Below, in pieces: positions 49,003 to 64,000 of a DNA stretch of 64,000 bases. Below the pieces are notes generated by a model, which did not search any database, was not told the DNA's origin, and was given only the letters and a program-made list of their open reading frames with translations. Source of the DNA: Alphaproteobacteria bacterium (GTDB lineage: Bacteria > Pseudomonadota > Alphaproteobacteria > SP197). The stretch spans positions 416,001 through 480,000 of the forward strand of contig OZ219918.1 of the NCBI GenBank assembly GCA_964291415.2. The letters are read 5' to 3'. Position numbers and translations under genes: made by a program. Position 1 is the first letter of the stretch. Every line of letters begins with the position of its first letter.

Positions 49003-50051
49003 CGGACCATCGCCCCCGCACGCCGGTCGCGATGCGTGTTGCGCGGGATCATTTCGCCTGCAATAGAGCGGTGAACAGGTGCCATGTCGGGATTGTCGTC
49101 GATTTCGCGGATCAACCTTACGGTCTCGGCCGCCATCCGCCGCATCGGATGACGATAGGTGGTCAGCGCATGGGAAGGCCAGCCAGCCATGGCAACGTCA
49201 TCGAATCCGACGACGGAGATGTCACGGGGTACGTCGCGCTTCAGTCCGTGACGCAGTGCATCAACTGTGCCAAAGGCGACGATGTCGTTGGCGCAGAATA
49301 TTGCGTCCAGATCGGGGACGGCGCGGATCAGGCGACAGGCCGCTGCATATCCGTCCTCGTAGGAGAACACCTCGGGAAGGTTGTCCCTGACGATCGTGAG
49401 GCCCGCCTCCGCGCAGCGCTCGACGAAGCCGCTGCCGCGGTCGATCGAGGTTGTCGCGTCGGGCGTACCGGCAATGTAGGCCATGTTGCGGTGGCCGGTT
49501 TCGATGAGGAACTCGGCGATCTCGCGACCGCCCCGCCTGTTGTCGCAGGTCACCGCAAAGGTCTCGGTTTCGGGAATATAGCGGTTGAAGAAGATCAGGT
49601 TGGTTCCGGTATCGATTGTCGCCATGGTGCGCTGGAACGAGACTGTTGCGGTCATGAGGATGATGTACTCGGGCTGATACAGCATGCCCTGTGGCAGCAC
49701 CTCGTCGGTCGTCTTTCCCTCGGGGACGTGAAACAGCATGACTCGGAGGCCGTGTTTTTGAAGTTCGCCGGTCAGGATCGCCATGACCTCTGGAAAGAAC
49801 GGGTTGAAGACGTCCGAGATGAAGATGCTGACGATGCGGGTCTTCTGGGTGATCAGGCTTCGAGCGAAGGGGTTGGGCTGGTATCCCATCGCCTTGGCGC
49901 GTGCGAGGATACGGTCGCGAGTATCCGGGGCGATCTGAGAGTCGGGCGAGAACGCACGCGAGACTGTCGAAATCGACACACCGAGTTCCTCGGCGACGTG
50001 CCGCGCCGCTACCGTCCTGCCGGCTGACTTTGGTTTTCCGGTATTGTCCAT
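48999..50051 (-). CDS. LacI-family transcriptional regulator
   Basis: VAEELGVSISTVSRA helix-turn-helix; YQPNPFARSL hinge; AIFCANDIVA; DISVVGFDD. Confidence 0.95.
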   Translation of the reverse strand: MDNTGKPKSAGRTVAARHVAEELGVSISTVSRAFSPDSQIAPDTRDRILARAKAMGYQPNPFARSLITQKTRIVSIFISDVFNPFFPEVMAILTGELQKHGLRVMLFHVPEGKTTDEVLPQGMLYQPEYIILMTATVSFQRTMATIDTGTNLIFFNRYIPETETFAVTCDNRRGGREIAEFLIETGHRNMAYIAGTPDATTSIDRGSGFVERCAEAGLTIVRDNLPEVFSYEDGYAAACRLIRAVPDLDAIFCANDIVAFGTVDALRHGLKRDVPRDISVVGFDDVAMAGWPSHALTTYRHPMRRMAAETVRLIREIDDNPDMAPVHRSIAGEMIPRNTHRDRRAGAMVR

Positions 50052-50172
50052 CGCCCCAGACCCGATCAGCGCTCCTCAGTCACTCTACGCACCGTGCCAA
50101 CACTTCCTCCACCCCGCTCCGTGGAAAACAGCTTACTGATACGGATCACGATTGATTGAGCGTATGCCTGGC

Positions 50173-50218
50173 TGCAAACCTTTGCAAGACGCAAGATACC
50201 ATGTTGCAAAGGTTTGCA
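50173..50218. promoter_or_regulatory. Pair of LacI-type operators in the divergent promoter region
   Basis: TGCAAACCTTTGCA (50173-50186) and TGCAAAGGTTTGCA (50205-50218); a -10-like TACCAT (50197-50202) lies between them. Confidence 0.75.
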
Positions 50219-50369
50219 TTGCCATTGTATCCAATCTAGGCTCGTCTCGGGCGAGCAGGGTTCAAGGCTTGTCGTCTGCCGATTCTGAGGGGTTAAGGCC
50301 TGACGCAGGACGGGGAGGCGCGACTGGCTGGCCCAGGTTCATGTTCATACACATTGGGAGGTTAAGGTA

Positions 50370-51542
50370 GTGACACAACTAACGAGAACCGCGGCCGCAC
50401 TGGCCGTCAGTCTGAGTGTCGGGACGGGTGCCGCATTGGCGGAAGGTCTCGACGAATTGCCGGAAGAGATAGTCGCCCGGACCTACAGCTCGGAAATGAT
50501 CGATCCGGCCCAGCCGGTCGAGGCAAGTATCTACCGTGACTGGAAATCACCAAGCGAACCGCCCTGGACGATCGGTTACGCCAGTTCCTATGCCGGTAAC
50601 ACCTGGCGGGCGGCCGTCATGGATCGGCTGATCCAGAGCATTCTGCCCAAGTGGCAGGAACTGGGATTGGTGGACGACGTCTTTGTCACCCAGTCCAACC
50701 TGAACGATTCGGTGCAGATCCAGCAGATGCGCCAGCTTGTTGATCAGGGTGTGGACGCGATCATCGTCTGCTGCTCGAACCCGACAGCACTCAATGCAAC
50801 GGTCAAGTATGCATATGAGCGAGGTGTGCCGACCTTCTCGTTCACCGGTTACCTGACATCACCCTATGCCGTGAACTCGTCAGTGAACTATCAGCTGGCC
50901 GGTTTCGAGATCGGCAAGTGGATGGCCGAAGAGGTTGGCGGTGAAGGAAGCATCCTTGTGGTCGAGGGCATTCCTGGCACTTCCGGTTCTGACTCGCAGC
51001 ACCGCGGCGTCCTGCTCGGTCTCGAGTCATACCCCGACATCGACATTGTCGGCGAGATCGCGGGCATGTGGACAGACCAGGTCGCCCAGGGTGAGGTTCA
51101 GAAGTGGTTGTCCACCAACCCTGGCCAGCTTGACGGCATCGTCGTGCAGTCGGCTGCGGAGATGGGCGTGTTGCGGGCCCTGCAACAATCGGGCCGGGAG
51201 ATGGTTCCTGTGGCGATTGGCGGCGAGCTCGGCGCCCTTTGCTACTGGCGCAAGAACCCTGGCTACATCAGCACGACCTTCCAGGTCTGGCCTCCCGGTG
51301 ATGATTTCGAGCTGATCTGGAACATCATGATGCGGACGCTTCAGGGTCAGGGCCCGAGGGTGCAGTCAATTCTCGTGGATCCATTCGAGTTCACTTATTC
51401 GGATCTCGAGGGTGTCCTCGACGAGAACTGCGACGAGAACTCCCAGCTGTGGCTCGAGGTCGGGCCTGCGGCCTGGGGTGCCGAAGACTATCTCGACCAG
51501 TTCTTCCTGCGTCCCGCAGATCCGACCCAGTACCAGCCCTGA
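50370..51542 (+). CDS. Sugar-type (periplasmic binding protein class I) ABC substrate-binding protein
   Basis: Signal peptide ending AALA; YAGNTWR; QIQQMRQLVDQGVDAIIV; VVEGIPGTSGS. Confidence 0.85.
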   Translation: MTQLTRTAAALAVSLSVGTGAALAEGLDELPEEIVARTYSSEMIDPAQPVEASIYRDWKSPSEPPWTIGYASSYAGNTWRAAVMDRLIQSILPKWQELGLVDDVFVTQSNLNDSVQIQQMRQLVDQGVDAIIVCCSNPTALNATVKYAYERGVPTFSFTGYLTSPYAVNSSVNYQLAGFEIGKWMAEEVGGEGSILVVEGIPGTSGSDSQHRGVLLGLESYPDIDIVGEIAGMWTDQVAQGEVQKWLSTNPGQLDGIVVQSAAEMGVLRALQQSGREMVPVAIGGELGALCYWRKNPGYISTTFQVWPPGDDFELIWNIMMRTLQGQGPRVQSILVDPFEFTYSDLEGVLDENCDENSQLWLEVGPAAWGAEDYLDQFFLRPADPTQYQP

Positions 51543-51584
51543 TCGGGCCGGTTTCGACTGAGGCCGTTTGACTCCGGATCGCTG

Positions 51585-53402
51585 ATGCCTTCCGAAGAAA
51601 CCGTGAGTTCCCAACAGGAGCTCCCCGGCGCCGCCGACCAGATGTCGGCGGCGCCGGCTTTCGTCGATGCGGATATTGTTGTGACCAATGTGCACAAGAC
51701 GTTCGGCGTCACGCGCGCGCTCGACGGAGTTTCCTTCAGTGCACGATGCGGCGAGATTCACGCTATCGTGGGTGGCAACGGTTGCGGCAAATCAACTCTG
51801 GCCAAGGTCATTTCGGGCGTCCTTCCCATCGACAGCGGTCAGGTGTCGGTTCTGGGACATGCACCCGGCAGCCCGCGCGAAGCGCGTCTGGCAGGCATCG
51901 CGACGGTCTTCCAGGAAGTTCTGGTGGCTGACCATCTGACGGTGCTCGACAATCTGTATGTCGGCGCTGACGGTCTCTGGTCCAAATCCCTGTCGTTCCG
52001 CGAAAAGTATGCAAGGGGCGAAGCCTTGATGCGTGACCTCAGCGGGGTTGATATCGACCCTGACGAGATCGTCGGTGGCTTGTCGCTGTCGATCAAGCAG
52101 TGGATCACCATCGGCCGCGCATTGATACAGGAACCCCGCGTCCTCATCCTCGATGAGTCCTCTGCAGCCCTCGATTTCGATTCGACCGAGAAGCTCTTCG
52201 AGAAGATGCGCGAACTGCGCGACAAGGGCGCCGCCGTGCTCATCGTGACCCATCGCATTGCCGAGCTGATTCGCGTATCCGACCGCGCCACGGTGCTGCG
52301 TGACGGGCGCGACGTTGGTGTACTGGCCAAGGAGGAAGTGACCGAACAGAACCTCTTGGGCCTGATGACCGGGAGGAGCCAGTCCACCGAGAGCGACGCC
52401 ACCAACTCGGTGGCGCCGGCCCGCGACGACACCGTGATGAGTGTACGTGGGCTCAAGGTTTGGGAAGGCAGCAAGGGTATCGACTTCGATCTCCACCGTG
52501 GCGAGGTGGTGGGTGTCGCCGGACTCGACGGGCAGGGCCAGGATGAGTTCGTGCGCGTGCTCGCCGGCGTCCAGCCCGCACTCGAAGGCGTACCCCTGGT
52601 GCGCAGTGGGCCCGGCAATCTGGCCGAGCTTCACGGACTTGAGGACGCTGATCGATTCCGTGTCGCCTACGTCTCGGGCGATCGCAAGCAGGAGGGAATC
52701 TTCCCCAACCTCTCGGTTTTCGAGAACCTTGCAATCGCGCTCTATCCCAGGGAACTGAAGACGCGCTTCGGCAATGTTATCGACTGGCCTTCACTGGCCA
52801 GCGTGTTCGAAAACTGGCGCCAGAAGCTCTCCATCAAGATCGGTTTGGCGTCCGACAAGGTCACATCGCTGTCGGGCGGCAATCAGCAGAAGGTGCTGAT
52901 CGGTCGCGCGATGGCCCTCAACCCGAGAATCCTTGTGCTCAACGACCCGGCGCGCGGCATCGACGTTGAGGCCAAGCGCGAACTTTATGATCATCTGCGC
53001 GACTTTGCCGCCCGAGGCGAATCCGTGGTCTTCATGTCGAGCGAACTTGAGGAGTTCATTGGACTTTGCACGCGCGTGATCGTGTTCCGTCATGGCGAGA
53101 TCTTCGACGCGTTCGCTGGCGACGACATCGAGCCGGCGCGCCTCCTCGAGGCCATGTTCGGCCAGACCTCCGGTCGTGGGGCCCGCCTTGCCGCGGGCGC
53201 GGATTCGGGACCAGCCGTTGTGGACAGTGATCCTGTGCCAGAGTCCGAGCGGGAAGCGCCGCGCAGGCAACATCGACCTCGGCCAGATGCAATCCGGATC
53301 ATTGACTTCGATGCCGAACGCAGGGAGCACCGCAGTCAGGGTGCAGTGGACACTCGGCAACCTGCGGAAAAGCGCATGAAGATAGTCTATTCGGACGGCT
53401 GA
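51585..53402 (+). CDS. CUT2-type tandem ABC ATPase with a C-terminal extension
   Basis: GGNGCGKST; VFQE; LDES; second half LSGGNQQK; about 80 extra aa after the last conserved helix. Confidence 0.92.
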   Translation: MPSEETVSSQQELPGAADQMSAAPAFVDADIVVTNVHKTFGVTRALDGVSFSARCGEIHAIVGGNGCGKSTLAKVISGVLPIDSGQVSVLGHAPGSPREARLAGIATVFQEVLVADHLTVLDNLYVGADGLWSKSLSFREKYARGEALMRDLSGVDIDPDEIVGGLSLSIKQWITIGRALIQEPRVLILDESSAALDFDSTEKLFEKMRELRDKGAAVLIVTHRIAELIRVSDRATVLRDGRDVGVLAKEEVTEQNLLGLMTGRSQSTESDATNSVAPARDDTVMSVRGLKVWEGSKGIDFDLHRGEVVGVAGLDGQGQDEFVRVLAGVQPALEGVPLVRSGPGNLAELHGLEDADRFRVAYVSGDRKQEGIFPNLSVFENLAIALYPRELKTRFGNVIDWPSLASVFENWRQKLSIKIGLASDKVTSLSGGNQQKVLIGRAMALNPRILVLNDPARGIDVEAKRELYDHLRDFAARGESVVFMSSELEEFIGLCTRVIVFRHGEIFDAFAGDDIEPARLLEAMFGQTSGRGARLAAGADSGPAVVDSDPVPESEREAPRRQHRPRPDAIRIIDFDAERREHRSQGAVDTRQPAEKRMKIVYSDG

Positions 53403-53413
53403 GGGCGGGAGCG

Positions 53414-53770
53414 ATGGAAATGAAGCGCATGAAGATCGTGGAGTTTGATGACGAGGGAAGGCCGGTCGAACGGCAGGGACCGACTGCATCTCCGCGCGTG
53501 ACGTCGGAATGCAGCGGGCCGGTCAGGATCGTGGCCTTTGGTGATGAACCCGAGGACAACCTCGGCGTGGAGACTGCACCGGACGCGCCGAAGATAAAGA
53601 TCAGGGAGTTTGATGGCGCTGGCGCGCCGAGACCGGCGGGTGAGCCAATGCGCTTTCGTATCCCGTCGGAAAAGAGCATCAGGGTTGTCGAGTTCGATGA
53701 CGACGGCAAGCCCAGGCGGCGCGAGAATGGTTCGGGTGCGCGTGGCATCAAGATTGTCGAGTTTGACTGA
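53414..53770 (+). CDS. Small hypothetical repeat protein ([IMV][KR][IV]x[EA]F[DG] five times)
   Basis: GGGAG RBS; repeats MKIVEFD, VRIVAFG, IKIREFD, IRVVEFD, IKIVEFD; lies inside the operon. Confidence 0.75.
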   Translation: MEMKRMKIVEFDDEGRPVERQGPTASPRVTSECSGPVRIVAFGDEPEDNLGVETAPDAPKIKIREFDGAGAPRPAGEPMRFRIPSEKSIRVVEFDDDGKPRRRENGSGARGIKIVEFD

Positions 53771-53821
53771 GCATCTGCCTTCCGGCCGGCGGGAAGGAAT
53801 GCGGAAAAGGGAAGGGCGAGC

Positions 53822-56044
53822 ATGAGCGAAACCGACGTCAGACGTCCGTCCTCGTCGGCCCATTCGTTTCTCATGGTGCCGATCATTCTGCTGTTCGTGC
53901 TGATCGTGGTCGCCGTACTCAGAAGTCCCAGTCTGGTAACGGGGCCGGGTCTGGGCAGCGCTGTCATTGTCGCTGCGCCGCTGATCCTGGCGACCTACGC
54001 GCTGACTGTTATCGTGATGGCGGGCCGTGGCGGCGTCGATCTTTCGATAGGACCGCTCATCGGTTTCATCAACGTCACCATGATTCAGCTTCATGCGGTC
54101 GGGGTCGTGACGTCGGTGGTCGATGTTTTCCTGTACGCGATTGCCGTGGGCATCGCCTATCAGCTGATCATGGGACTGATCATCTGTTACGTGCGGATTC
54201 AGCCCATTATCGTGGCGCTGGCAGGCTTTCTGACACTTGCGGGGCTCAATCTCGTCATACTGCCGCGGCCAGGCGGAGTCGCACCGCAGTGGATGAGTTC
54301 CTGGGCTCTGGGCGAGTCGATCTGGACACCTGTGCTGGCGATTCTCGCCGTCGCGACTGCCGCTTGGTTCCTGTTCACGCGCACCGCCTTTTTCAACCAT
54401 CTGCGCATCATGGGCGCGGACGAGAGAACTGCCTACACAGCGGGCGTCAACATCGTCGTCGTGCGGCTGGGCGCACATGTCGTCGCGGGAGTCTATGCCG
54501 GACTTGCGGCAATCTGTTTCACGTCGTTGATCAGTTCCGGAGACCCGACTCAGGGCAGCACCTATACGCTGATGGCCGTGACAGCGCTCGTTCTGGGCGG
54601 CACGAGCCTGGCCGGCGGACGCGGCAGTATCATCGGATCGCTGTTGGGGGCGCTGAACATCTATCTCATCACCTATGTGCTCGCGACGTTCAACTTCGGC
54701 ATGGTGCAGAGCTTTGTCACCCAGCTCGCCTATGGCGTGATTCTGGTTGTTGCCTTGCTGCTCACGATTCTTCTTCCACAGATCCAGCGCGCCATGCGTT
54801 ACGTGTCGCCCTATGTCGTGTTCGCTTTCCTCGGTCTCACCGCCGCCGGAGCGATGCTCTATGCCCAGGACGTCGTGCTCGAGACCGTTGGAACGTCGCT
54901 CGCCGGGACCTCGCTGAGCGGCCAGTCGCTCAGCGGGCAGTCTCTCAGTGGAACCTCGTTGAGTGGCACGTCCCTGACGACTCAGGCCGAAGCGCCTGCC
55001 GATCCTACCGGTACACCCATCGTCGTCGCGGCGGTGGTGATCGCTGCAGCGGTTTACCTTATCTGGCTGCTTTACAGGCATCTGAATTTCGCGACCGTCG
55101 CTCTGATTGGCGTCGTTTCACTAATCGTATTGGGCTATGCGGTCCATGATGGAGGCATACCCGAGCAGCGCTCCGTGGAGATGGTCGGCAACTGGGCGAT
55201 GGAAAAGGCACAGACCCCGTTCGTACTAGGTGCCGAGAAGCCACCTGAACCGGCAGTGCAGGTGCTGTCATTCGAGGAGTCACCGCTTTTCGGTGCGGCA
55301 CTGGCGGGTGCCGGGACGCTGGTTCTCGGCACCATTCTGATCTTCACGACGGTGCCACAGATACAGCAGCGGAGGGTCGGTGAAAACTCGCTGCTTTTCA
55401 TGTCTGTCGTCGGCTTGATCATAGCCGCGGGATTGATCTACTGGCTGCAGGATGGCGCTGGAGCAAGCAAGCTGTTCGCGGGTGCGCTCGGTGCGCTGGT
55501 TGTAGGCGCCATGCTTTTCGTGGTGACGCTCCCCCGGTTCCAGGACCGCATCCGGAACATCACCATGGTGATGGTGACGCTGATTGCGCTCGTGGCGCTG
55601 ATCAGCACGTTCCTTGCAAATGTTCCGCCCCTGTCGACGAGTCCTGTGCCGCTGTTGACCGCAGCGGCTCCTGAACCTCTGGAAGCGGCCGCACTGTCAA
55701 ACGGCTTTTTCCTTGCAGTCGTACTGCTTCTTGTCGCGGGCGTGACCCTCTATCTTCTGGTGATTCCGGGCGTGCGTCGCCACGTCATGTCGAACGTGCC
55801 GCTTGGCGCAGGGATCCGTTCCTACTCCTACACCACGTTGTTTGTTTCGGTCAGCGCCACGGCCTTCGCTTGTGCGGTGCTGATGGTTGCAGGTGCGCCG
55901 TTGTGGAAAGTCGTGGTCGCCGCACTTGCCGTGCTGATAGCAACCAAGTTCGGTTACCACTTCTTGCGTGATTACCGGCGCAGGCGCCCAACCGTGCCTC
56001 GTCTCAAGACACCGCGAGCCCTTCGGGTGTCGAGGAGGGTCTGA
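53822..56044 (+). CDS. Sugar-type ABC permease with a C-terminal multi-transmembrane extension of about 400 aa
   Basis: GGVDLSIG, IQPIIVAL, GADERTAYTAGV and LGGTSLAGGRG core motifs in the first ~320 aa; 740 aa in total. Confidence 0.88.
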   Translation: MSETDVRRPSSSAHSFLMVPIILLFVLIVVAVLRSPSLVTGPGLGSAVIVAAPLILATYALTVIVMAGRGGVDLSIGPLIGFINVTMIQLHAVGVVTSVVDVFLYAIAVGIAYQLIMGLIICYVRIQPIIVALAGFLTLAGLNLVILPRPGGVAPQWMSSWALGESIWTPVLAILAVATAAWFLFTRTAFFNHLRIMGADERTAYTAGVNIVVVRLGAHVVAGVYAGLAAICFTSLISSGDPTQGSTYTLMAVTALVLGGTSLAGGRGSIIGSLLGALNIYLITYVLATFNFGMVQSFVTQLAYGVILVVALLLTILLPQIQRAMRYVSPYVVFAFLGLTAAGAMLYAQDVVLETVGTSLAGTSLSGQSLSGQSLSGTSLSGTSLTTQAEAPADPTGTPIVVAAVVIAAAVYLIWLLYRHLNFATVALIGVVSLIVLGYAVHDGGIPEQRSVEMVGNWAMEKAQTPFVLGAEKPPEPAVQVLSFEESPLFGAALAGAGTLVLGTILIFTTVPQIQQRRVGENSLLFMSVVGLIIAAGLIYWLQDGAGASKLFAGALGALVVGAMLFVVTLPRFQDRIRNITMVMVTLIALVALISTFLANVPPLSTSPVPLLTAAAPEPLEAAALSNGFFLAVVLLLVAGVTLYLLVIPGVRRHVMSNVPLGAGIRSYSYTTLFVSVSATAFACAVLMVAGAPLWKVVVAALAVLIATKFGYHFLRDYRRRRPTVPRLKTPRALRVSRRV
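54890..54979 (+). repeat. Coding 15-bp (5-aa) tandem repeat, six copies of G[TQ]SL[AST]
   Basis: GTSLA GTSLS GQSLS GQSLS GTSLS GTSLT; synonymous codons differ between units. Confidence 0.95.
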
Positions 56045-57468
56045 TGAAGCCCACACAGCACCGCTTCTACAAGTGGCTCGGGTTCCTCTTCGCGCTCCTG
56101 GTTGCCGGCGGCAGCGTGATTCTCGGAATCGTCGAGGAGATTGAAGCCCAGTACATTCTGTTCTCGGCGATCGCCACCTTCGCCATCGTGCTGTGGGCTT
56201 GGCATCACTTCTCGGTCCGCTGGGTCTACGATCTCGACGGCATGGCGCTCGATAGCATGAGCCGGGAGAATCGGGGATCGTCGGAAGAGCCGTCCGAAGT
56301 GCCGCATCACGAGCAAAGCACGGGCCGCTACGTGCGATTCCTCGCGCTCGAATACAAGCACATCATCATCGGTTTCCTGATTTTGCTTGGGTTGTTCCTG
56401 ATTGTCGCCTTCTCGGTGGAGGATTTCTGGACCTGGAACAACATCATCGCTTCTGTCGTCGTGGCGGTGTTCATCGGCATCGCCTTCATGCTCAATCGAA
56501 CGGTCTCCGAGAACTCGTCAGCCTTCATCGGCGTCACGGTCCTGCTTGGTCTTTTCATTGTCGGCTCGCTTGTCGTCGACGGCTTCTTCTCGGCGATCAA
56601 CATCAAGTCAATGCTGGTCTTTGCATCCTTTCTCGGGCTTGCATGCGTCGGTCAGACACTTGTTGTCCTGCTGGGTGGGCTGGATCTCTCGATTCCCTTC
56701 GTCATCGGTTCAGCCAACGTAGCGTTGCTCTATCTCCTGGGGCTCGGCGTGCCGTCCTGGTTCGCGGTGATCGCGATCCTGATCCTCGGGGCCATCATCG
56801 GGGTCATCAACGGCCTCCTCAGTTTTCGACTGCAGGGCCAGGCACTGATCGTCACGCTCGGTGTGGGCTTTGCGGTCGCAGGTGGCACGCAGATTCTGAC
56901 AAGCATCGGTACACGCTATTCGGGCAACGTCTTCGGCGTGGTGCCCGAGTGGCTCACCAATATCGCAGCGATGAATGGACGCACCTTCGGGCTCGACTTT
57001 CCGCCGGTGATCGTGATCTGGATCGCTGCGGCAATCTTGCTCACCATCGCGATGCGCAACACGGTCTTTGGGCGCAGGCTCTATGCGCTGGGTGGCAGCC
57101 GCAGAGCGGCCAGGCGTCTATCGATCTCGGAGCGCAATTACTGGATTGCGGTCTACGGAGCATCGGGCTGCATCGCGGCGATGACTGGAGCCCTGCTGCT
57201 GGGCTGGTCGGGTGGCGGCTTCATCGGTGTCGGGGATCCTTACCTCTTCATGACACTTGCTGCTGTGGTGATTGGTGGCACCTCGCTCCTGGGCGGCTGG
57301 GGCGGTTATGGCTTCACCGTAATCGGTGTGCTCGTACTGCAGGTGCTGTCGTCCTTTCTGGTCGGCATCGGCCTGTCCTTCGAGGGCCAGCAGTTCGTTT
57401 TCGGCCTGCTGATCCTGCCCATGGTCGCCATGTATGCCCGCTCGCCGCACATTCGAACACAGATCTGA
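56044..57468 (+). CDS. Sugar-type ABC permease with an N-terminal multi-transmembrane extension of about 150 aa
   Basis: GQTLVVLLGGLDLS; IVTLG; FGRRLYALG; IGGTSLLGG; 474 aa. Confidence 0.88.
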   Translation: MKPTQHRFYKWLGFLFALLVAGGSVILGIVEEIEAQYILFSAIATFAIVLWAWHHFSVRWVYDLDGMALDSMSRENRGSSEEPSEVPHHEQSTGRYVRFLALEYKHIIIGFLILLGLFLIVAFSVEDFWTWNNIIASVVVAVFIGIAFMLNRTVSENSSAFIGVTVLLGLFIVGSLVVDGFFSAINIKSMLVFASFLGLACVGQTLVVLLGGLDLSIPFVIGSANVALLYLLGLGVPSWFAVIAILILGAIIGVINGLLSFRLQGQALIVTLGVGFAVAGGTQILTSIGTRYSGNVFGVVPEWLTNIAAMNGRTFGLDFPPVIVIWIAAAILLTIAMRNTVFGRRLYALGGSRRAARRLSISERNYWIAVYGASGCIAAMTGALLLGWSGGGFIGVGDPYLFMTLAAVVIGGTSLLGGWGGYGFTVIGVLVLQVLSSFLVGIGLSFEGQQFVFGLLILPMVAMYARSPHIRTQI

Positions 57469-57513
57469 ACGAGGCAGGTATGACATCAGGACGCCCTATC
57501 GAGGAACGACACC

Positions 57514-58236
57514 ATGAGTGAGATGCTGCAACCAAATGACATCGTCGGCATGTCATTCTGGCTCATGACCCTCGCCATGGCGGGTGCGGCAGCATTCTTC
57601 CTGCTGGAGCGTCGTCGCGTGGAGCGCCGCTGGCAGGCGGCGCTGACCACGCTCGGCGTCGCCATGCTGGTCTCGGCACTGAGCTATGTGAATCTCGCGG
57701 GCGTCTGGGCAGGCAAGGGCGAAGTGTCGACGATTTACCGTTTCGCCGAGTGGCAGCTGACGGTGCCGCTCCTTACAGTGACCTTCTACCTGGTGCTGTG
57801 TGCGGTGACGAAGGTTCCAGCAGCATTGTTCTGGCGCCTTCTGGTGGCCTCGGGTGTACTCACGGCTGCGGGTTACCTCGGTTCGGCGGGCTTCGTCAGC
57901 CCAACACTGGGCTTCCTCGTTGCGCTCGCCGGCGGTCTCTACATCCTGGGCGAAATCTACCTTGGCGAGGCGGGAAGGCTCAATGCCAACAGCGGCAATC
58001 AGAAGGCCCAGACCGCGTTCAGCGCGATGCGCCTTATCGCAACCATCGGCTGGGCGATCTATCCGCTGGGCTACTTCATGGAGTACCTGGGCGGCGGCGT
58101 CGACAATGAAGCGATCAATCTGATCTACAACCTCGCTGATTTTCTCAACAAGCTCGCATTTGGCCTCATCGTCTGGCAGGCCGCGGCGAACGACAGGGAA
58201 GCGGACGGAAATCGCTCGCCGCTGTCAGGCGCATGA
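57514..58236 (+). CDS. Proteorhodopsin-family microbial rhodopsin, flotillin-associated type, ETT motif
   Basis: Seven transmembrane segments; SFWL...FFLLER; YRFAEWQLTVPLL; GWAIYPLGY; YNLADFLNK with Schiff-base Lys213. Confidence 0.92.
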   Translation: MSEMLQPNDIVGMSFWLMTLAMAGAAAFFLLERRRVERRWQAALTTLGVAMLVSALSYVNLAGVWAGKGEVSTIYRFAEWQLTVPLLTVTFYLVLCAVTKVPAALFWRLLVASGVLTAAGYLGSAGFVSPTLGFLVALAGGLYILGEIYLGEAGRLNANSGNQKAQTAFSAMRLIATIGWAIYPLGYFMEYLGGGVDNEAINLIYNLADFLNKLAFGLIVWQAAANDREADGNRSPLSGA

Positions 58237-58297
58237 GCGGACAAAGAAACAAGAGATCCGTGAACCGCGATGTGGGGCGCAGAAGGGGAGTTGAAGC

Positions 58298-60361
58298 ATG
58301 ACCGGAGCTGACATCATCACCACGATCCTGCTTGCAGGCATCCTGATCGCGGTCATCGTCTACCTGCTGTACTGGCTGTACCGGCGCTCGTCCAAGGAAG
58401 TCGCCTTCGTGCGCACAGGCCTGGGTGGCGAAAGGGTCGTCATAACCGGTGGTGCGCTTGTGCTGCCCATCGTCCACAACGTGACGCTGGTGGGAATGAA
58501 CACGTTGCGTCTGGAGGTCAGGCGGGACGGCGATCAGGCACTCATCACCAAGAACCGGATGCGCATTGACGTGGTGGCCGAGTTCACCGTGCGCGTGCGG
58601 TCTGACCCGGAGGCCGTGTCGTTGGCAGCCCAGACGCTGGGACGGCGATCCATGAGTGCCGATGATGTCAAGGAGGTTGTCCAGGGTCGTTTCGTTGATG
58701 CCCTTGCAAGCGTTGCCGCCCGGATGACCATGGACGACATCCAGGAGAACCGTGACGTCTACATGAAGGATGTCCGGGCAATCATCGAGGAGAGCGTGGC
58801 GCGCAACGGACTGGAAATCGAGGCCGTGTCGCTCACCGGCCTCGACCAGACCAGCATCGAACGGTTCAATCCGTCAAACGCCTTTGACGCCGAAGGTCTG
58901 ACCCGACTGACCGAACAGATCGAAACACGCAAGAAGGCCAGAAATGACATAGAACAGGACACGATGGTTGCGATTCGGTCGAAGAACCTCGAGGCCGAAG
59001 TCGAGGCGCTCGAAATTGACCGCAAGAGCGAATACGCGCGGCTCGAACAGGAACGCGAGGTCGCAAAGCAGCGGGCTTTGGAGAAAGCACAGATCACGAT
59101 GGAACGGGCTGCCCGGGACCGGGAGGCTCAAGAGGCGGAGATTCGCGCCGAAGAGGAAGTCGAGATTGCCCGCATTCAGCGTGAAAAGGCCCTGGAGGCC
59201 GAGCGGTCCTTGCGTGAGACGACGCTGACGGAGGAGATCGAGGCCCGGCGCAAGCACCGCAACGACGTGGAGCGCGACACCCAGATTGCGATCCGCGCGA
59301 AGGACCGTCAGGCGGAAGTGGAGATCCTGGAGATCGAGAAGGAGATCGAATTCGCAAGGCTCGGTCAGCAAGAAGCCATTGCCGGACAGCGCGCAACGCA
59401 GATGGCCGAGATTGCCAGGCGTCAGTCGAGTGGCGAGCAGGAAGCGGAGACCGCTCGCATTGCCGCGCTGGAGGCCATTGAGCGCGCTCGCATTCTTCAG
59501 GAAAGAGCGGTGGAGTCCGAGCGCATCGCGCGCAATCAGGAAGTCGATCGCCTGGAGGTGCTGCGCCGCAAGGTTCTGCAACTCGAGGAGCAGGAGCGCG
59601 CCATTGCCATCACACGCAAGGAGAAGGACAAGGCCGAGGCGCAGGCCGAAACCGAGGAGGCCCGCGCCCGGGCCGTCGAAGCCGAGGAGAAAGTCGCCTC
59701 GGCGCGGGAGCGGGAGGCTGCTGAGCGACGCAAGCTCGTCGAACTCATCGAGGCTGCTCGTGCGGTCGAGAGCGAAGCGCTCCAGCTCACCACCATTGCC
59801 GCGGCGCAGACCAACGCAGCTGAACAGAAGGCTGCGGCCGACCGTTTCGCCACACTGTCGGAGAAGCTGCGTTACGAAGTCGATGCCGAGGGCAGGCGTG
59901 CCCTCAACGAGGCGGAGAACATCCGCACCGATGACAACCGTGAACATGCTCTGCGCATGAAGCTTCTGGAGCACATCGAGGGCATCGTGCGTGAGAGCGT
60001 CAAGCCGCTGGAGAACATCGACTCCATCAAGATCCTTCAGGTCGACGGCGTACCGGGCGTCAACAGTCCGTCGGACGTTGGCCGCGGCGGAGCCGGTTCC
60101 GGTGATCCCGCCTCTGGTGGGGGCAGCATGACCGACCGCATCGTGAATTCGGCCATGAAGTATCGCACTCAGGCGGCATTCGTAGACGGCTTGATGAAGG
60201 ACCTGGGACTGCCGATGGAGCACCTCGGCAGCGCGGGTGGCCTGTCCTTCCGCAACTTTGCTGAAGCACCTCCCGAGGATGTCGCGGACGGTAAGCCGGG
60301 TGGAGACCATACCGACGACGATAACGTCGAGGACAGCGGGCCATCAGACGACGACAAATAG
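58298..60361 (+). CDS. Flotillin (SPFH/band 7, YqiK-like) protein
   Basis: N-terminal transmembrane segment; AFVRTGLGG; AAQTLG; NGLEIEAVSLTGLDQT; FNPSNAFDAEGLT; long EA-rich coiled coil; KPLENIDSIKI. Confidence 0.93.
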   Translation: MTGADIITTILLAGILIAVIVYLLYWLYRRSSKEVAFVRTGLGGERVVITGGALVLPIVHNVTLVGMNTLRLEVRRDGDQALITKNRMRIDVVAEFTVRVRSDPEAVSLAAQTLGRRSMSADDVKEVVQGRFVDALASVAARMTMDDIQENRDVYMKDVRAIIEESVARNGLEIEAVSLTGLDQTSIERFNPSNAFDAEGLTRLTEQIETRKKARNDIEQDTMVAIRSKNLEAEVEALEIDRKSEYARLEQEREVAKQRALEKAQITMERAARDREAQEAEIRAEEEVEIARIQREKALEAERSLRETTLTEEIEARRKHRNDVERDTQIAIRAKDRQAEVEILEIEKEIEFARLGQQEAIAGQRATQMAEIARRQSSGEQEAETARIAALEAIERARILQERAVESERIARNQEVDRLEVLRRKVLQLEEQERAIAITRKEKDKAEAQAETEEARARAVEAEEKVASAREREAAERRKLVELIEAARAVESEALQLTTIAAAQTNAAEQKAAADRFATLSEKLRYEVDAEGRRALNEAENIRTDDNREHALRMKLLEHIEGIVRESVKPLENIDSIKILQVDGVPGVNSPSDVGRGGAGSGDPASGGGSMTDRIVNSAMKYRTQAAFVDGLMKDLGLPMEHLGSAGGLSFRNFAEAPPEDVADGKPGGDHTDDDNVEDSGPSDDDK

Positions 60362-60406
60362 ACGACCAGCGCAGGCGGAACGTCACTGACTTAAGGGGAC
60401 TGGGAC

Positions 60407-60796
60407 ATGAGTATCGATGTCAACAGCTGGGCAGCCAAGTACAAGCAGCTCACCAATGCTGACGAAACCATTCAATGCATGGGAAGGTATTACACCTGTA
60501 CGTTCATGTTCGACATGGGCACACGGAAGGTCATCGTCGAAATGCACGATGGCAAGGTGAAGGGCATCAACACGAACCCGGCGCCGATGGATCCCTACGA
60601 TTTTGCCTTGCGCGCCAGTCCTGAGACCTGGCGCGAGTTTGCCCAGCCGATGCCCAAGCCAATGTATCACGGCATCTTTTCGGCGAGCTTCCAGCGTGAC
60701 CTCAAACTCGAGGGCAATTTGCTGGTGTTGATGCAGAACCTGAGGAATTTCACCGTGCAGTTCGAGTTGCTGCGCCAGTCCGGCGTCCCGGTCTAG
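60407..60796 (+). CDS. SCP2 (sterol carrier protein-2)-like lipid-binding protein
   Basis: 129 aa; DFALRASPETWREF and LKLEGNLLVLMQ match the SCP2-like pattern. Confidence 0.6.
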   Translation: MSIDVNSWAAKYKQLTNADETIQCMGRYYTCTFMFDMGTRKVIVEMHDGKVKGINTNPAPMDPYDFALRASPETWREFAQPMPKPMYHGIFSASFQRDLKLEGNLLVLMQNLRNFTVQFELLRQSGVPV

Positions 60797-60848
60797 GCCG
60801 GTCGCCACTACGCCACGAAACACGAACGCCAAGTCGAGGGCAACAACC

Positions 60849-61700
60849 ATGGTCAAGCATTCTCCGGTCACCGGCCGCTACGTCACGATCGAAGTTGACG
60901 GCAACGAGTACAAAGTCTTCTACCTGCACAATGGCACCGGACAGCCGCTGATTTGTCAGCACACGGCGGGTGCTCACAATCATCAATGGCGTGGCCTTCT
61001 GGAGGACGAGGAGATCACCCGGGACTACAACGTGATTGCCTACGACCTGCCGCGTCACGGCAAGTCGGATCCGCCGCACAACAAGGAGTGGTGGAAAGAT
61101 GAGTACCGCCTGACGGCTGACCACTACGTCAACTTCATCGTCACGTTATGCGACGCACTTGAACTCAAGGAACCGATCTTCATGGGGTCGTCCTTCGGCG
61201 GCAACGTGGCGCTGCAGCTTGCGCTGAGGCGGCCGGACCGTTTCAAGGCGGTGATTCCCGTTGAGGCAGCCGACTATGCGCCTGGCTTCTTTCTCGATTG
61301 GTGGCGCCATCCGCACGCCAACGCCGCCCAGGTCTGCGCCTCGGGAGTGTGGGACTTGATGGCCCCGCAATCCCCGGACATGGACCGATGGCTCACTTGG
61401 CACTACTACACGCAGGGTTCGGAGGCCTTCAAAGGCGATCTCTACTTCTATTCGGTCGACCACGACCTGCGTGACGAGCTTGTCAACATCGACGGGAGGC
61501 GGTGCCCTGTCATCATGATGACGGGGACATACGATTACCTGACGCCCCCCGAGGCAACCGAGAATACCGCGCGCCAGATCAAGGGCGGCGTCTACATTGA
61601 AATGGAGGACATCGGGCATTTTCCCATGAGCGAGAATCATGAACTGTTCCGTGTCTATCTCAAGGAGGCGCTGCGCATCATCAGGGAGCGCAAAGGCTGA
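60849..61700 (+). CDS. Alpha/beta-fold hydrolase
   Basis: HTAG; AYDLPRHGKS; nucleophile elbow GSSFGG; GTYDYL; GHFPMSEN. Confidence 0.9.
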   Translation: MVKHSPVTGRYVTIEVDGNEYKVFYLHNGTGQPLICQHTAGAHNHQWRGLLEDEEITRDYNVIAYDLPRHGKSDPPHNKEWWKDEYRLTADHYVNFIVTLCDALELKEPIFMGSSFGGNVALQLALRRPDRFKAVIPVEAADYAPGFFLDWWRHPHANAAQVCASGVWDLMAPQSPDMDRWLTWHYYTQGSEAFKGDLYFYSVDHDLRDELVNIDGRRCPVIMMTGTYDYLTPPEATENTARQIKGGVYIEMEDIGHFPMSENHELFRVYLKEALRIIRERKG

Positions 61701-62094
61701 CACATCGCCTGTACGGGCAAGGGCGCGATCGTGGATCCCGCCGTCGGTTTCCAGTCACGCGTTGACTGCGGGACTTGACGTCACGGTATCGGGCTCATTC
61801 TTGAGTTCTGGTGCGGGCGCGCTCCACGTTTCGGGCGATGAGGCAGAGTGTCGGGATGACGAAACAGACTGGAGTTGCCGCGGGGACTCAACATGATCGG
61901 CTACTTCGAGGACGGTTTTCCCGGCGCCCATGCCCAGCGGTGCCTGCTCGCCAGGTCCGGTTGACGAGAAAAACCCCGCCATTTCCTGCAGCGACGCCGT
62001 GCATTGCTGACGGTCCGGCATGGCGCCGTGGTGTCCGGCCATCGGGCGTTGCGAGCCTGGCGTCTGGCTCGATCCGACAAGACGAGGCAGTTTC

Positions 62095-62985
62095 ATGAAC
62101 GCACACGAGGGACATGTGCCGCTCTGCCAGGGAGCCGATCCGTCGCCACGCCCTTCGTGGGTCGGGATGCCGGAGGGGGCCTGCGACGCGCACATGCACA
62201 TCTTCGGGGCCCGCGCACGCTATCCGATGGTGCCGGACCGCAACTATACTCCGCCGGAAGCAACGGTCGAAGCCTACGAGGCGCTGGCCCGTGTGCTTCA
62301 CATTCGGCGAACGGTGATCGTCCAGCCCAGCGTCTACGGTGTCGACAATGCGTGCACGCTCGATGCTCTGCTGGCCCTGTCGCTTGAAGCCCGTGCCATC
62401 GTGGCAGTCGACAACAGCGTGAGCGACGCCGAGCTTCAGCGCCTGCATGCCCGAGGCGCCCGGGGCATTCGCTTCAATCTGCTGATGAGAGGCGGTATCG
62501 GGATCACGGACGCCGAATGCCTTGCCGAGCGCATCAAGGGCATGGGCTGGCATATCGAGGTGATGATGGACGTTTCCTCCGACCCGGAGCTTACCGAGCG
62601 CCTCGGCCGTCTCGGTGTGCCAGTCGTGTTCGATCACATCGGTCATATCCGACCGGGCACTCGCACTGATGATCCGGGTTTCCAGGCCATGGTCCGACTG
62701 GTGGGAGATGGGGGCGCCTGGGTCAAGCTCTCGGGTGCCTACCGCGTCACGGTCGAGGATCGGACCCCCTATGCGGATGTCGGCGCGCATGTCCGTGTCC
62801 TGCTCGAAGTCAATCCGCAACGGTGCCTCTGGGCCACCGACTGGCCGCACCCAGGCATCAACGTCCCGATGCCCAACGACGGCGCCCTGCTTGACATGCT
62901 CGGCTACTGGGCACGCGACGCAGCGCTGCGCCGTCGCATACTGGTCGACAACCCCGCTGATCTCTACGGCTTCGGAGCGCTCTAG
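62095..62985 (+). CDS. Amidohydrolase_2 family protein, LigI (2-pyrone-4,6-dicarboxylate lactonase)/sugar-lactonase-like
   Basis: CDAHMHIFG; VQPSVYGVDN; RGIRFN; FDHIG; WVKLSGAYR; WATDWPHP. Confidence 0.85.
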   Translation: MNAHEGHVPLCQGADPSPRPSWVGMPEGACDAHMHIFGARARYPMVPDRNYTPPEATVEAYEALARVLHIRRTVIVQPSVYGVDNACTLDALLALSLEARAIVAVDNSVSDAELQRLHARGARGIRFNLLMRGGIGITDAECLAERIKGMGWHIEVMMDVSSDPELTERLGRLGVPVVFDHIGHIRPGTRTDDPGFQAMVRLVGDGGAWVKLSGAYRVTVEDRTPYADVGAHVRVLLEVNPQRCLWATDWPHPGINVPMPNDGALLDMLGYWARDAALRRRILVDNPADLYGFGAL

Positions 62986-63390
62986 TCCGAGCACAGCCAT
63001 TCATTTGTCAAGGTCAGCCGGATCCGCAGGTGACGTGACGGTGAATTCACCGTGAGATTTCATGCCGTCGGTTCTTCCAACAATGCACCGGTCACGCATC
63101 CACAACGCGGCTGGCCCCATCAGACCGCCATATGATGCTCGCGGGGTATGCTCCCAGGGCATCGACGCACCCTCAAGGGCGTGTTCAATGGTGCCCGTAG
63201 CGTCGATCGCCTGCCTGGACCGCAGTCTCTCATCGACATTCCAACATCTGCGGGCGTTCGTGGATCAGCGTTAGCTGAAGGCTTTCCTTGGAGGTTGGAG
63301 CGAAGCAGCAGGCTTTGGCCGCAGGCACGATGTCACGAGCCTCCAGACGAATCAGGCGCGAGTGGCGCAAGCGGGGACAAGGAGCAATCC

Positions 63391-63771
63391 ATGATGGACC
63401 TGAAACGAAGCGGTGTGATCGTGTTCACCGAGCAGTACGAGGCGTGTGTCGACTTCTATCGTCGGGTCCTGGAACTGCCGGAAATGTTCTCGCTCGATGA
63501 CGAGCATTCCACGCTCACCTGCCTGGACATGGGCGGGAGCTACCTGATGATCGAAACCGGCGGCACGGCGATGCCGAAAGGGCGATCCATCGAGCAATGC
63601 CCGGTCAAGCTGAGGTTCAACGTCGCCGACGTCGATGCTGCCGCCCGTCTTCTGGAGTCGCGCGGCGTCATCGTCGTCATCAGACGAGAGGCCTGGGGAA
63701 CTGTCGGCGATTTCGTCGATCCGGACGGGAACCGCTGTTCGCTGCGCGACGAAGACTCGTTCCTTCCGTAA
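63391..63771 (+). CDS. VOC (glyoxalase/bleomycin resistance) family protein
   Basis: AAGGAG RBS; CVDFYRRVLEL; LRFNVADVDAA; WG...FVDPDGN. Confidence 0.85.
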   Translation: MMDLKRSGVIVFTEQYEACVDFYRRVLELPEMFSLDDEHSTLTCLDMGGSYLMIETGGTAMPKGRSIEQCPVKLRFNVADVDAAARLLESRGVIVVIRREAWGTVGDFVDPDGNRCSLRDEDSFLP

Positions 63772-63838
63772 GTTCCCGGAGGGTGTTTCACCAGCGACAC
63801 TCGTCCATGAGGGCGCAGGTTCCGCCACGCCCTTTCAG

Positions 63839-64000
63839 TCAATTCCGGGCCTGGAGATCCTCGGGGGAATCGCCCAAGAGGTAACGCGGACCGGGACCCA
63901 GGCTGCCGGCGACATCACCGTGGTTGTAGAGAGCGCAACTGTCGAGCGACAGGCATCCGCAGCCGATGCATGACGCAAGCTGGTCCCGCAAGCGTTCGAG
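63839..64000 (-). CDS. soxR: C-terminal part of the redox-sensitive activator SoxR, truncated by the window edge and absent from the ORF track
   Basis: Reverse strand reads LERLRDQLASCIGCGCLSLDSCALYNHGDVAGSLGPGPRYLL...*, containing the SoxR [2Fe-2S] motif CIGCGCLSLxxC. Confidence 0.92.
   Translation of the reverse strand, partial: LERLRDQLASCIGCGCLSLDSCALYNHGDVAGSLGPGPRYLLGDSPEDLQARN

Follow-up and report, generated by a model that had tools for sequence, protein, structure and literature searches.

A rhodopsin gene in a 64,000-nucleotide stretch of an alphaproteobacterial genome (assembly GCA_964291415.2, contig OZ219918.1, positions 416,001 to 480,000; hereafter, the window) was found to encode, almost certainly, a flotillin-associated rhodopsin (FAR). 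The gene lies at positions 57514 to 58236 of the window on the plus strand and gives a protein of 240 amino acid residues from an ATG start. The assignment is based on Pfam, the Protein Data Bank (PDB), an AlphaFold2 (AF2) model, a phylogenetic tree, and the neighboring flotillin gene. Judging from its residues, the protein is very unlikely to pump protons. The reading that I favor, at a probability of roughly 55%, is that it is a non-pumping FAR which acts with flotillin, and probably with the adjacent transporter, in a membrane microdomain, and which is most likely retinal-free in its native host. Retinal-free operation in vivo, taken by itself, may be held a little more firmly than this reading as a whole. 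The FAR family and its association with flotillin are already published, and this is not a new kind of system. FARs are widespread, and the rhodopsin of the window is a natural test case for whether retinal-competent FARs exist.

The rhodopsin gene and its product

The Pfam family Bac_rhodopsin matched the protein with an E-value of 6.6e-32 and 111.2 bits (cut-off, 24.6), and 57 distinct PDB sequences matched it at E <= 0.01, which is far beyond chance. The top PDB matches were the double mutant PsFAR-H84V/E120G (9r23, 1.4e-81), PsFAR itself, which is a FAR from a Pseudothioglobus single-cell genome (9r21, 7.6e-80), and Med12 blue proteorhodopsin (4jq6, 1.1e-62). The HMMER alignments to these three sequences have no gaps over residues 2-230. 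They place E79 on Asp, T83 on Thr, G141 on Trp, and K213 on Lys, and T90 aligns with Met in PsFAR and with Glu in 4jq6. The same columns were obtained with MAFFT for five proteorhodopsin paralogs from single-cell genomes that carry the pump motif DTE (Asp-Thr-Glu); the paralogs have D/T/E, H57, Y77, W141, and K213. The translation of the gene further has S54, S57, F77, W80, V84, L87, G120, A137, W180, Y183, P184, Y187, D209, and N212. The equivalents in green proteorhodopsin, which I take to be D97, E108, H75, Y95, and W159 (an offset of 18), are assumed from numbering, and the equivalence given by the alignment tools is only to PsFAR, Med12 blue proteorhodopsin, and the proteorhodopsin paralogs.

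An earlier note, made from the sequence alone, had listed E79, T90, S57, F77, and G141 as substitutions and T83, L87, W80, W180/Y183/P184, D209, and K213 as retained residues. All of them were confirmed by the translation and by the PDB and MAFFT alignments. That note had considered that a proper alignment might place an Asp or Glu at the proton donor position; the donor column is T90 with both HMMER and MAFFT. It overlooked V84 and G120, the most informative residues, as well as the flotillin gene downstream.

A Shine-Dalgarno-like motif, GAGG, is located 8 nt upstream of the ATG, and the open frame has 250 amino acids, i.e., 10 open codons precede the ATG. The proteorhodopsin paralogs are approximately 15-18 residues longer at the N-terminus, and the rhodopsin has no leader peptide. 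The lack of these residues is in line with the N-terminal deletion of 23 amino acids reported for FARs (PMC10308929); this paper and the others below are cited for the parts of their text that were available. The AF2 model, calculated with 34 clade sequences, has a mean predicted local distance difference test (pLDDT) score of 88.9 and shows seven transmembrane helices and one short helix. Its helix A starts from residue 7, in agreement with the absence of a signal peptide stated in the earlier note. In a Foldseek comparison, the model matched PsFAR 9r21 with a TM-score of 0.92 and a root-mean-square deviation of 1.5 Å.

The ratio of nonsynonymous to synonymous substitution rates (dN/dS) was 0.06-0.18 against four relatives at 91-95% identity, and 63 columns are invariant among 30 rhodopsin sequences spanning 50-95% identity. 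The rhodopsin gene is under purifying selection and functional.

Placement in the FAR clade

A homolog search gave 3363 matches at E <= 1e-10, of which the best 120 were used, and a search of representative sequences gave 1175 matches at E <= 0.001, of which the best 150 were used. The tree has 78 rows: the query, locus rhodopsins and homologs thinned at 85% identity, and 23 full-length representatives, partial ones being dropped. It was made with IQ-TREE (LG+C20+F+G4, quick search), and branch support is from the Shimodaira-Hasegawa-like approximate likelihood ratio test (SH-aLRT) only. A FAR clade of 55 rows (SH-aLRT 90) stands apart from the DTE proteorhodopsins. Nested in it, the query belongs to a clade of 45 rows (SH-aLRT 97), and the FAR clade further holds a marine-type clade (8 rows, SH-aLRT 99; Thioglobus and HIMB59-type) and a divergent lysine-less pair. 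When the thinned sequences were reassigned, 94 distinct sequences fell into the clade of the query, hereafter the Gly141 branch, and 72 into the marine-type clade; the groups were set by the tree and not by residues.

The genomic context agrees with this placement. In a species-level scan with one genome per species, the window proteins were searched by tblastn; from 146 relatives, 80 loci were kept. A flotillin homolog lies directly downstream of the rhodopsin in all 80 related loci, whose guanine-plus-cytosine (GC) contents range from 33% to 69%. The flotillin gene of the window (58298 to 60361, plus strand, 687 amino acids) begins 61 bp after the rhodopsin gene. The earlier note had set the protein apart from FARs and had suggested a phylogeny with proteorhodopsin and FAR sets. 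Such a phylogeny, together with the flotillin gene and the FAR gene cluster, indicates that the protein is itself a FAR and not an odd proteorhodopsin. The assignment holds despite the unplugged retinal site described below, since the plugging was reported for the studied marine members and is not a naming criterion.

The two branches differ at several positions. At position 84, the Gly141 branch has V in 67, A in 21, L in 3, I in 1, T in 1, and a gap in 1 of its 94 sequences, whereas the 72 marine-type sequences have H (52), F (15), Q (4), or R (1). Position 120 is A (71) or G (23) in the Gly141 branch and E (59) or G (13) in the marine type. Position 141 is G in 93 and A in 1 of the former but W in all 72 of the latter, and position 77 is F in 93 and V in 1 against Y in all 72. 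The Schiff-base position 213 has K (70), R (20), or V (4) in the Gly141 branch and K throughout the marine type. Position 79 is mostly Asp in both (D 84, E 8, G 2 against D 71, G 1). At position 87, Leu is found in 22 and Gln in 65 of the 94 (marine type: L 10, Q 62). Ser54 is found in 80/94 and 72/72, respectively, and Ala in 15/15 proteorhodopsins. Asp209 is kept in 93/94 sequences of the Gly141 branch, and His57 is missing in 59/94. Thus, F77, G141, and the lack of His57, which the earlier note had listed as changes, are traits shared with much or nearly all of the branch. One Gly141-branch sequence on a 938-bp contig (P0012) has the pump motif DTE-Q and Ala54 alongside Gly141 and Phe77; reversion, recombination, or, on so short a contig, chimeric assembly may explain it.

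Glu-Thr-Thr (ETT) at positions 79, 83, and 90 had been considered an atypical variant. In the published FAR motifs (DTT, DTL, and DNI; PMC10308929), the first letter is always Asp. The Thr at the donor position of the query is as in DTT, and its Glu lies outside these motifs. ETT is found in 5/94 distinct clade sequences and E79 in 8/94, at three separate places in the tree (the query with L014; L016; P0026 with P0038), so that the change from D to E at 79 seems to have arisen at least three times in the clade. A relative with 95% identity (L012) has DTT, with the Asp codon GAT where the query has the Glu codon GAG, and in L016 both 79 and 209 are Glu. Counted over 101 rows including 7 duplicates, the motifs DTS (39), DTT (18), and DTL (11) prevail in the clade. 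Since E79 is rare and scattered among relatives with DTS and DTT, ETT is a conservative variant on a donor-less background. It was found in none of the characterized homologs, and there is no sign that it marks a separate function.

The lack of a carboxylic donor at 90, the lack of His57, and Glu in place of Asp at 79 argue against proton pumping. It is reported that the conversion of DTE to DTT-T abolished function (Olson et al., cited in PMC10308929), and the donor-less PsFAR double mutant does not pump. The inefficient pumping predicted in the earlier note is consistent with all of these.

The retinal pocket

The lack of color in PsFAR is attributed to His84, which fills the polyene site, and Glu120, which fills the ring site. 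Single mutants were insufficient, and only PsFAR-H84V/E120G is reported to bind all-trans retinal covalently again, at Lys213; this double mutant (absorption at 498 nm) shows no pumping and a long-lived 375 nm state and is nearly bistable. In the same study, an aromatic residue at 84 is stated to be conserved within FARs, K213 of PsFAR is hydrogen-bonded to S54, D79, and D209, and Ser54 is linked to the stabilization of the cofactor-free lysine (10.1101/2025.04.29.651185).

The query lacks the site-filling side chains (an aromatic residue at 84 with Glu120 or Trp137) and has V84, G120, and A137. Thus, its pocket is, by sequence, unplugged at the two sites known to matter. The other mappable pocket positions except Gly141 are presumably proteorhodopsin-like: W80, T83, L87, L116, I144, L145, I148, W180, Y183, P184, Y187, D209, and N212, on a mapping to bacteriorhodopsin which I assume. 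Among them, W80, W180, Y183, P184, Y187, and N212 are invariant in the lysine-bearing and the lysine-less members and in the marine type (72/72). Because these residues are invariant also in the lysine-less members and in the branch of the retinal-free PsFAR, their conservation is no argument for retinal.

Rather, the Schiff-base lysine is the less constant residue. It is replaced in 24/94 sequences of the Gly141 branch, in several separate subclades, and both Gly141 and F77 are better kept than Lys213. The four Val213 members (P0020, P0021, P0047, and P0056) all have Lys87, at the 'tuning' site of helix C, together with Ala54. With Lys87 in the Val213 sequences, some buried cation is found in all 94, which fits the ion lock of PsFAR. 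From the alignment, the Val213 subclade seems to have kept the buried cation by shifting it to another helix.

Gly141 presumably corresponds to xanthorhodopsin Gly156 and bacteriorhodopsin Trp138, an equivalence that I derive from assumed proteorhodopsin and bacteriorhodopsin numbering. The W159 residue of green proteorhodopsin is described as lying near the beta-ionone ring (10.64898/2026.07.18.739351), and Gly at xanthorhodopsin 156 (bacteriorhodopsin Trp138) opens a 'fenestration' for carotenoid antennas (10.1101/2022.08.24.505090; 10.1101/2024.11.08.622755). The earlier proposal that the change from Trp to Gly enlarges or opens the ring end of the pocket is thereby supported. Since 43% of environmental proteorhodopsins are reported to have Gly at the fenestration site (10.1101/2022.08.24.505090), there is nothing exotic in the change by itself.

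Retinal and carotenoid genes in the host genomes

The genome of the window consists of 5 contigs totaling 4.44 Mb, with 64.5-66% GC and 100% completeness. It has only one match to Bac_rhodopsin and no match to blh/BCD. The 27 matches to lycopene cyclase all cover profile positions 1-45 only, i.e., the shared nucleotide-binding N-terminus. A heliorhodopsin search gave no match in this genome, and the control genomes were equally without a match. Two genes of the SQS_PSY family are HpnC and HpnD, the latter adjacent to HpnE; all three exceed the NCBIfam equivalog cut-offs, and the two SQS_PSY genes lie far below the CrtB cut-offs.

I searched the 34 genomes reached via the loci for rhodopsin, blh, and crtI. 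In the 28 other large FAR genomes (2.7-6.1 Mb), FAR is the only rhodopsin in 26, while two add a match of 31-35 bits; blh was found in 0/28 and crtI over the cut-off in 1/28. In the six streamlined genomes (1.0-1.3 Mb), FAR is accompanied by a proteorhodopsin in 5/6, and blh and crtI were each found in 4/6. The latter results serve as a positive control, indicating that the searches work.

Some side observations were made in these genomes. A distant second rhodopsin-like open reading frame (ORF) of ~251 amino acids, with 32-34% identity to the query and 31-35 bits, was found in the same-genus genomes G052, G055, G058, and G059 and in G003 and G004; three of four copies have an in-frame TGA, and the genome of the window lacks it. 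The HpnC/HpnD/HpnE squalene route of the window's genome is encoded at G000 C4:1624298-1626550 (L126:7298-9550) and C2:1041550-1042792 (L127:8551-9792). HpnD and HpnE adjoin dxs, and ispH/lytB is two genes away from HpnC. The C-domain of squalene-hopene cyclase gave no match in this genome. An isoprenoid lipid for the flotillin microdomain could come from this route, as squalene or a derivative. A single RPE65-family oxygenase-like gene (G000 C2:979039-980369) is split over two frames (profile positions 8-333 and 349-469). The split is either a frameshift or an assembly error; most genomes of the genus carry an unbroken copy. As a source of retinal, this oxygenase was rejected: it is present in 17/22 other genomes of the same genus, comprising 5/6 FAR carriers and 12/16 non-carriers, and thus shows no link to FAR.

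Possible functions of the rhodopsin

In the favored reading, the seven-transmembrane protein would play a structural or regulatory role in the membrane, together with the flotillin microdomain and the adjacent transporter. By analogy with the PsFAR structure, the Schiff base would be replaced by an internal ion lock of Lys213, Glu79, Asp209, and Ser54. The unplugged pocket may collapse, or it may hold a membrane-derived placeholder that enters via the Gly141 opening. The retinal-free proteoopsin 8CNK is reported to be folded and pentameric; in its retinal pocket, the lysine forms a salt bridge with decanoate (C10), and helices E and F leave an opening between them (PMC11322631). With this decanoate as a precedent, a lipid occupant entering at Gly141 is a legitimate hypothesis. 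The earlier note had suggested that Lys213 may hold a non-retinal ligand; the lipid version of this idea has a solved analog in 8CNK and may be entertained.

Several findings weigh against retinal-free operation, and most of them favor another explanation, namely that the protein is a retinal-binding but non-pumping photoreceptor. In that case, Lys213 would bind, as a Schiff base, retinal that the bacterium takes up from the sponge holobiont, and a donor-less, slow, nearly bistable photocycle like that of PsFAR-H84V/E120G would light-switch the flotillin microdomain or the transporter; the Gly141 branch would then consist of retinal-competent FARs. I regard this as the main and a serious rival, though clearly less probable. 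At 84 and 120, the query has the very residues, Val and Gly, with which the engineered double mutant binds retinal; this mutant is the best PDB match and scores slightly above the wild type. None of the 94 sequences of the Gly141 branch has an aromatic residue at 84, while H or F is found in 67/72 of the marine type. The query and 70/94 clade members keep Lys213, the query and 93/94 keep Asp209, and the gene is under purifying selection. The residues W80, T83, L87, W180, Y183, P184, Y187, D209, N212, and K213 are proteorhodopsin-like, and position 87 varies between Leu and Gln, as at the spectral tuning site. The own genome has a contamination of 8.99%, and its lack of crtI over the cut-off concerns the 31 scored among 117 first-look candidates. 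Moreover, missing blh is not proof of missing retinal, since scavenging is discussed for some bacteria that have a rhodopsin but no pathway for retinal synthesis (PMC11322631), and it is conceivable that carotenoids or retinal come from other organisms in the sponge habitat.

Against the photoreceptor stand the host genomes and the evolution of the branch. No blh was found in the own or the 28 other large FAR genomes, crtI is nearly absent from the latter, and the RPE65-family oxygenase neither tracks FAR presence nor is in one frame in the own genome. The lysine has been lost in about a quarter of the branch, while Gly141 and the 'pocket' aromatics persist. At position 87, Leu and Gln alternate likewise in the marine type, to which the retinal-free PsFAR belongs. 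Thus, I retain the reading of a retinal-free partner of flotillin.

A further idea, rather speculative, is that the Gly141 branch represents a natural 'open-pocket opsin', in which the cavity is kept, the Schiff base is dispensable, and the pocket is opened sideways to the bilayer by the invariant glycine. Such a protein would be a cation-anchored receptor or holder of a membrane lipid, coupling lipid status to flotillin, the SCP2-like carrier, the hydrolase, and the ATP-binding cassette (ABC) transporter. The ligand would be a fatty acid or an isoprenoid (e.g., squalene-derived), anchored by Lys213, by Arg213, or, in the Val213 subclade, by Lys87. If true, this would be a bacterial counterpart of a ligand-binding seven-transmembrane receptor, derived from a light-driven pump, and the cavity could still give light sensitivity in hosts that meet retinal.

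It is very improbable that the protein is a light-harvesting rhodopsin with a carotenoid antenna, in which Gly141 would be the fenestration glycine that lets a xanthophyll ring reach the retinal ring, as in Kin4B8 and fenestrated proteorhodopsins. Position 141 is indeed Gly where the proteorhodopsin paralogs and the marine-type FARs have Trp, and the model matches the zeaxanthin-bound NM-R1 (9jou) in Foldseek with a TM-score of 0.85. The xanthorhodopsin 156 Gly is reported to enable carotenoid binding, and the G153F mutation of Kin4B8 to abolish it (10.1101/2022.08.24.505090; 10.1101/2024.11.08.622755). However, without a pump and a retinal acceptor, an antenna would be of no use, and the query has no donor (T90). 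As the main explanation, the antenna was rejected because no carotenoid or retinal genes were found in the genome and because the glycine outlasts the lysine. In addition, the correspondence of G141 to the xanthorhodopsin glycine is presumed via numbering. Finally, an evolutionary relic, i.e., a decaying proteorhodopsin copy carried in an ABC-transporter operon, is hardly credible: the pump residues are lost (E79, S57, and T90), the lysine is lost in some relatives, the distribution is patchy, and one related locus (L024) has an early stop codon and a shortened flotillin, but the low dN/dS, the invariant columns, the flotillin synteny in all of the 80 loci, and the confident AF2 model speak against decay.

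Comparison with known systems

PsFAR is the closest characterized wild-type protein, with 53% identity, the same length, and no signal peptide. Ser54, Asp209, Lys213, Asn212, and W80/W180/Y183/P184 are common to both, neither has a carboxylic donor, and the PsFAR gene is likewise followed directly by flotillin, with the same SCP2-like and hydrolase genes. In contrast, PsFAR has His84, Glu120, Trp141, Tyr77, Asp79, and Met90 where the query has Val84, Gly120, Gly141, Phe77, Glu79, and Thr90; Thioglobus-type loci have Leu at 90. The hosts also differ. The PsFAR host has a streamlined genome of 1.3 Mb with a proton-pumping proteorhodopsin, while the host of the query has 4.4 Mb and no second rhodopsin. 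PsFAR-H84V/E120G (9R23), which shares Val84, Gly120, and the lack of a donor, gives the best available prediction for the query if retinal is met. The mutant is artificial and has Trp141, Asp79, and Gln87, whereas Val84 and Gly120 of the query are natural and stand with Gly141, Glu79, and Leu87. Because of these three residues, the color, the pKa of the counterion, and the packing of the ring pocket would differ from those of the mutant.

Freshwater FARs are reported to be more diverse than marine ones, to occur in wider taxa, always by flotillin, and to be mostly lysine-less, with Gln, Thr, Leu, or Arg (PMC10308929, Haro-Moreno 2023). The Gly141 branch also has lysine-less members and includes metagenome-assembled genomes (MAGs) labeled as Bradyrhizobiaceae and Aestuariivirga. 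It is probably the same as, or overlaps with, the freshwater FARs. In that paper, all FARs are treated as probably retinal-less with a reduced pocket, and the presence of other rhodopsins could not be determined by its authors (PMC10308929). Its available text does not describe the unblocked pocket, the Gly141 signature, ETT, or large hosts without proteorhodopsin.

Three further systems share single traits with the query. The proteoopsin 8CNK resembles the query model (TMq 0.85) and sets an example of an unplugged pocket that holds a lipid other than retinal; it differs in being a true pump (DTE, His75, and Trp159), expressed in E. coli, in which decanoate is proposed to fill the site only for a time (PMC11322631). 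Kin4B8, NM-R1, and xanthorhodopsin have Gly at the site in transmembrane helix 5 that is Trp138 in bacteriorhodopsin, to which Gly141 presumably corresponds, and their ring end is open to the bilayer. They are DTE pumps with a supply of retinal and carotenoid, whereas the query has ETT and no such pathway was found in its genome. Rh-noK is a lysine-less, xanthorhodopsin-like, retinal-independent protein, encoded in tandem with proteorhodopsin and proposed to be regulatory (PMC10308929; 10.1101/2025.04.29.651185). A rhodopsin fold that works without retinal would be common to it and, in the favored reading, the query; the query keeps Lys213 and has no rhodopsin neighbor.

FARs are described in the literature as paralogs that accompany a proton pump in streamlined marine plankton and that, in dim light, may help or tune its activity (PMC10308929; 10.1101/2025.04.29.651185). 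The locus and its relatives break three generalizations: the pump paralog, the plugged site with an aromatic residue at 84, and the pump helper. Since FAR stands alone in large genomes without proteorhodopsin, a role that depends on a partner proteorhodopsin is not the core function of the family. The constant feature is the cluster of FAR, flotillin, SCP2-like protein, hydrolase, and transporter. Relative to the available text of the two FAR papers, the new points are the natural open pocket, which contradicts a conserved aromatic residue at 84, the near-invariant Gly141 and Phe77, ETT, and large high-GC hosts, some of them sponge-associated, in which no proteorhodopsin or known retinal genes were found. 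Among the papers listed in literature searches, I found no further FAR study and no report of rhodopsin-flotillin in a sponge symbiont.

The gene cluster

The same-strand run that contains the rhodopsin gene begins with a periplasmic substrate-binding protein (50370 to 51542, plus strand; Pfam Peripla_BP_4, 4.4e-36) and an ABC-transporter ATPase with two ABC_tran stretches (51585 to 53402, plus; Pfam ABC_tran, 4.7e-39). These are followed by ABC permease 1 of 740 amino acids (53822 to 56044, plus; Pfam BPD_transp_2, 5.1e-15, residues 49-315) and the sugar-type ABC permease 2 (56044 to 57468, plus; BPD_transp_2, 5.5e-26), which has an N-terminal extension of 186 amino acids. The stop codon of permease 2 lies 45 bp before the rhodopsin start. 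A match to permease 2 is found in 77/80 related loci, with at least 53% identity and directly upstream of the rhodopsin in 72, and permease 1 is conserved upstream in most of them. None of the NCBIfam sugar ABC permease models reached its cut-off with permease 2. After the BPD_transp_2 domain, permease 1 has SLSGQ/SLSGT (Ser/Leu/Gly) repeats and ~400 amino acids of hydrophobic segments without a Pfam match, and the extensions of both permeases are kept in many related loci. Divergent from the run are a LacI-family regulator (48999 to 50051, minus; Pfam LacI, 1.2e-09; Peripla_BP_3, 6.5e-27) and a sodium:solute symporter (46972 to 49002, minus; Pfam SSF, 5.4e-31).

The flotillin gene is preceded by AGGGGAG before its ATG. 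The protein consists of an N-terminal transmembrane helix, an SPFH/Band_7 domain (Pfam Band_7, 8.3e-14, residues 36-183), a long coiled coil rich in Glu, Ala, and Arg, and a C-terminal Flot domain (Pfam Flot, 1.9e-31, residues 507-638). Residues 1-45 (58298-58430), i.e., the transmembrane helix and the next segment, are near-invariant in 30 sequences at 46-95% overall identity, and residue 25 is Tyr in loci of the Gly141 branch and His in marine-type loci. On this conservation, the N-terminal segment is a candidate contact surface for a partner in the membrane. A complex prediction with the rhodopsin and flotillin residues 1-200 gave a score of 0.00, which weighs neither way.

Downstream of flotillin are a gene for an SCP2-like (sterol/lipid carrier-like) protein of 129 amino acids (60407 to 60796, plus) and an alpha/beta hydrolase gene (60849 to 61700, plus, 283 amino acids; Pfam Abhydrolase_1, 1.4e-22). 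The Pfam SCP2 match is weak (E-value of 0.0067, 17.2 bits against a cut-off of 21.3), and no PDB match was found at E <= 0.1. The SCP2-like gene is present in 73/80 related loci, at 71-96% identity where present, and its published counterpart in FAR clusters is the 'sterol-binding-domain' gene (PMC10308929). The hydrolase is present in 74/80 (two of the 74 are fragments at a contig end). No NCBIfam model exceeded its cut-off with the hydrolase, and its PDB relatives are generic alpha/beta-hydrolases (best, 2.9e-10). Full-length matches to it are 80-99% identical, even in single-cell genomes of 33-36% GC in which the rhodopsin is ~50% and flotillin ~47% identical. This conservation suggests that no part of the FAR cluster is more constrained than the hydrolase. 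The same-strand run also includes an amidohydrolase and a glyoxalase-fold protein.

The published FAR cluster comprises rhodopsin, flotillin, a sterol-carrier-like gene, an inner-membrane translocator, a sodium symporter, and alpha/beta hydrolases (PMC10308929). The cluster of the window agrees with it, the symporter included. Over positions 49800-64000, terminator-like and promoter-like matches are at chance level (terminator-like, 9 against 9.5 expected), and none lies on the plus strand between the rhodopsin and the hydrolase. From this arrangement, the permeases, rhodopsin, flotillin, SCP2-like protein, and hydrolase are probably encoded on a single transcript. In an RNA-library run labeled as a sponge metagenome, parts of permease 2 and flotillin are matched by identical contigs, which does not show transcription and is at most a hint; for the rhodopsin, the same run has only a diverged piece of 96 nt with 11 differences.

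Host and distribution

The closest loci are labeled as uncultured Alphaproteobacteria. Other clade members are labeled as Rhodospirillales, Kiloniellaceae, Hyphomicrobiales, Bradyrhizobiaceae, Aestuariivirga, Gammaproteobacteria, and Ectothiorhodospiraceae, and one is from a 'Spongia' bin. Alpha- and gammaproteobacterial sequences interleave in the tree. Contigs with at least 99% identity to parts of positions 56000-61800 were found in two runs, from two studies, labeled as sponge metagenome (7 pieces and 5 pieces).

In a search of 33 genomes of the order, a close homolog (E < 1e-100) was found in 6/22 other genomes of the same genus and in 0/10 genomes from four other genera of the family. 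Over positions 46001-64000, the GC content is 0.60-0.63, and a second estimate for the cluster region is 0.60-0.62; the first 46 kb have 0.64-0.72, and the contigs as a whole have 0.645-0.66. The low GC content and the presence in only 6/22 genomes of the genus point to a horizontally acquired island. As far as the sequences indicate, the cluster behaves as a mobile accessory island. On a 4090-bp contig of a Hyphomicrobiales MAG (L024), the FAR homolog has a stop at codon 6 and is followed by a flotillin cut to 118 amino acids and then by a hydrolase fragment. This locus may be a decayed copy of the cluster.

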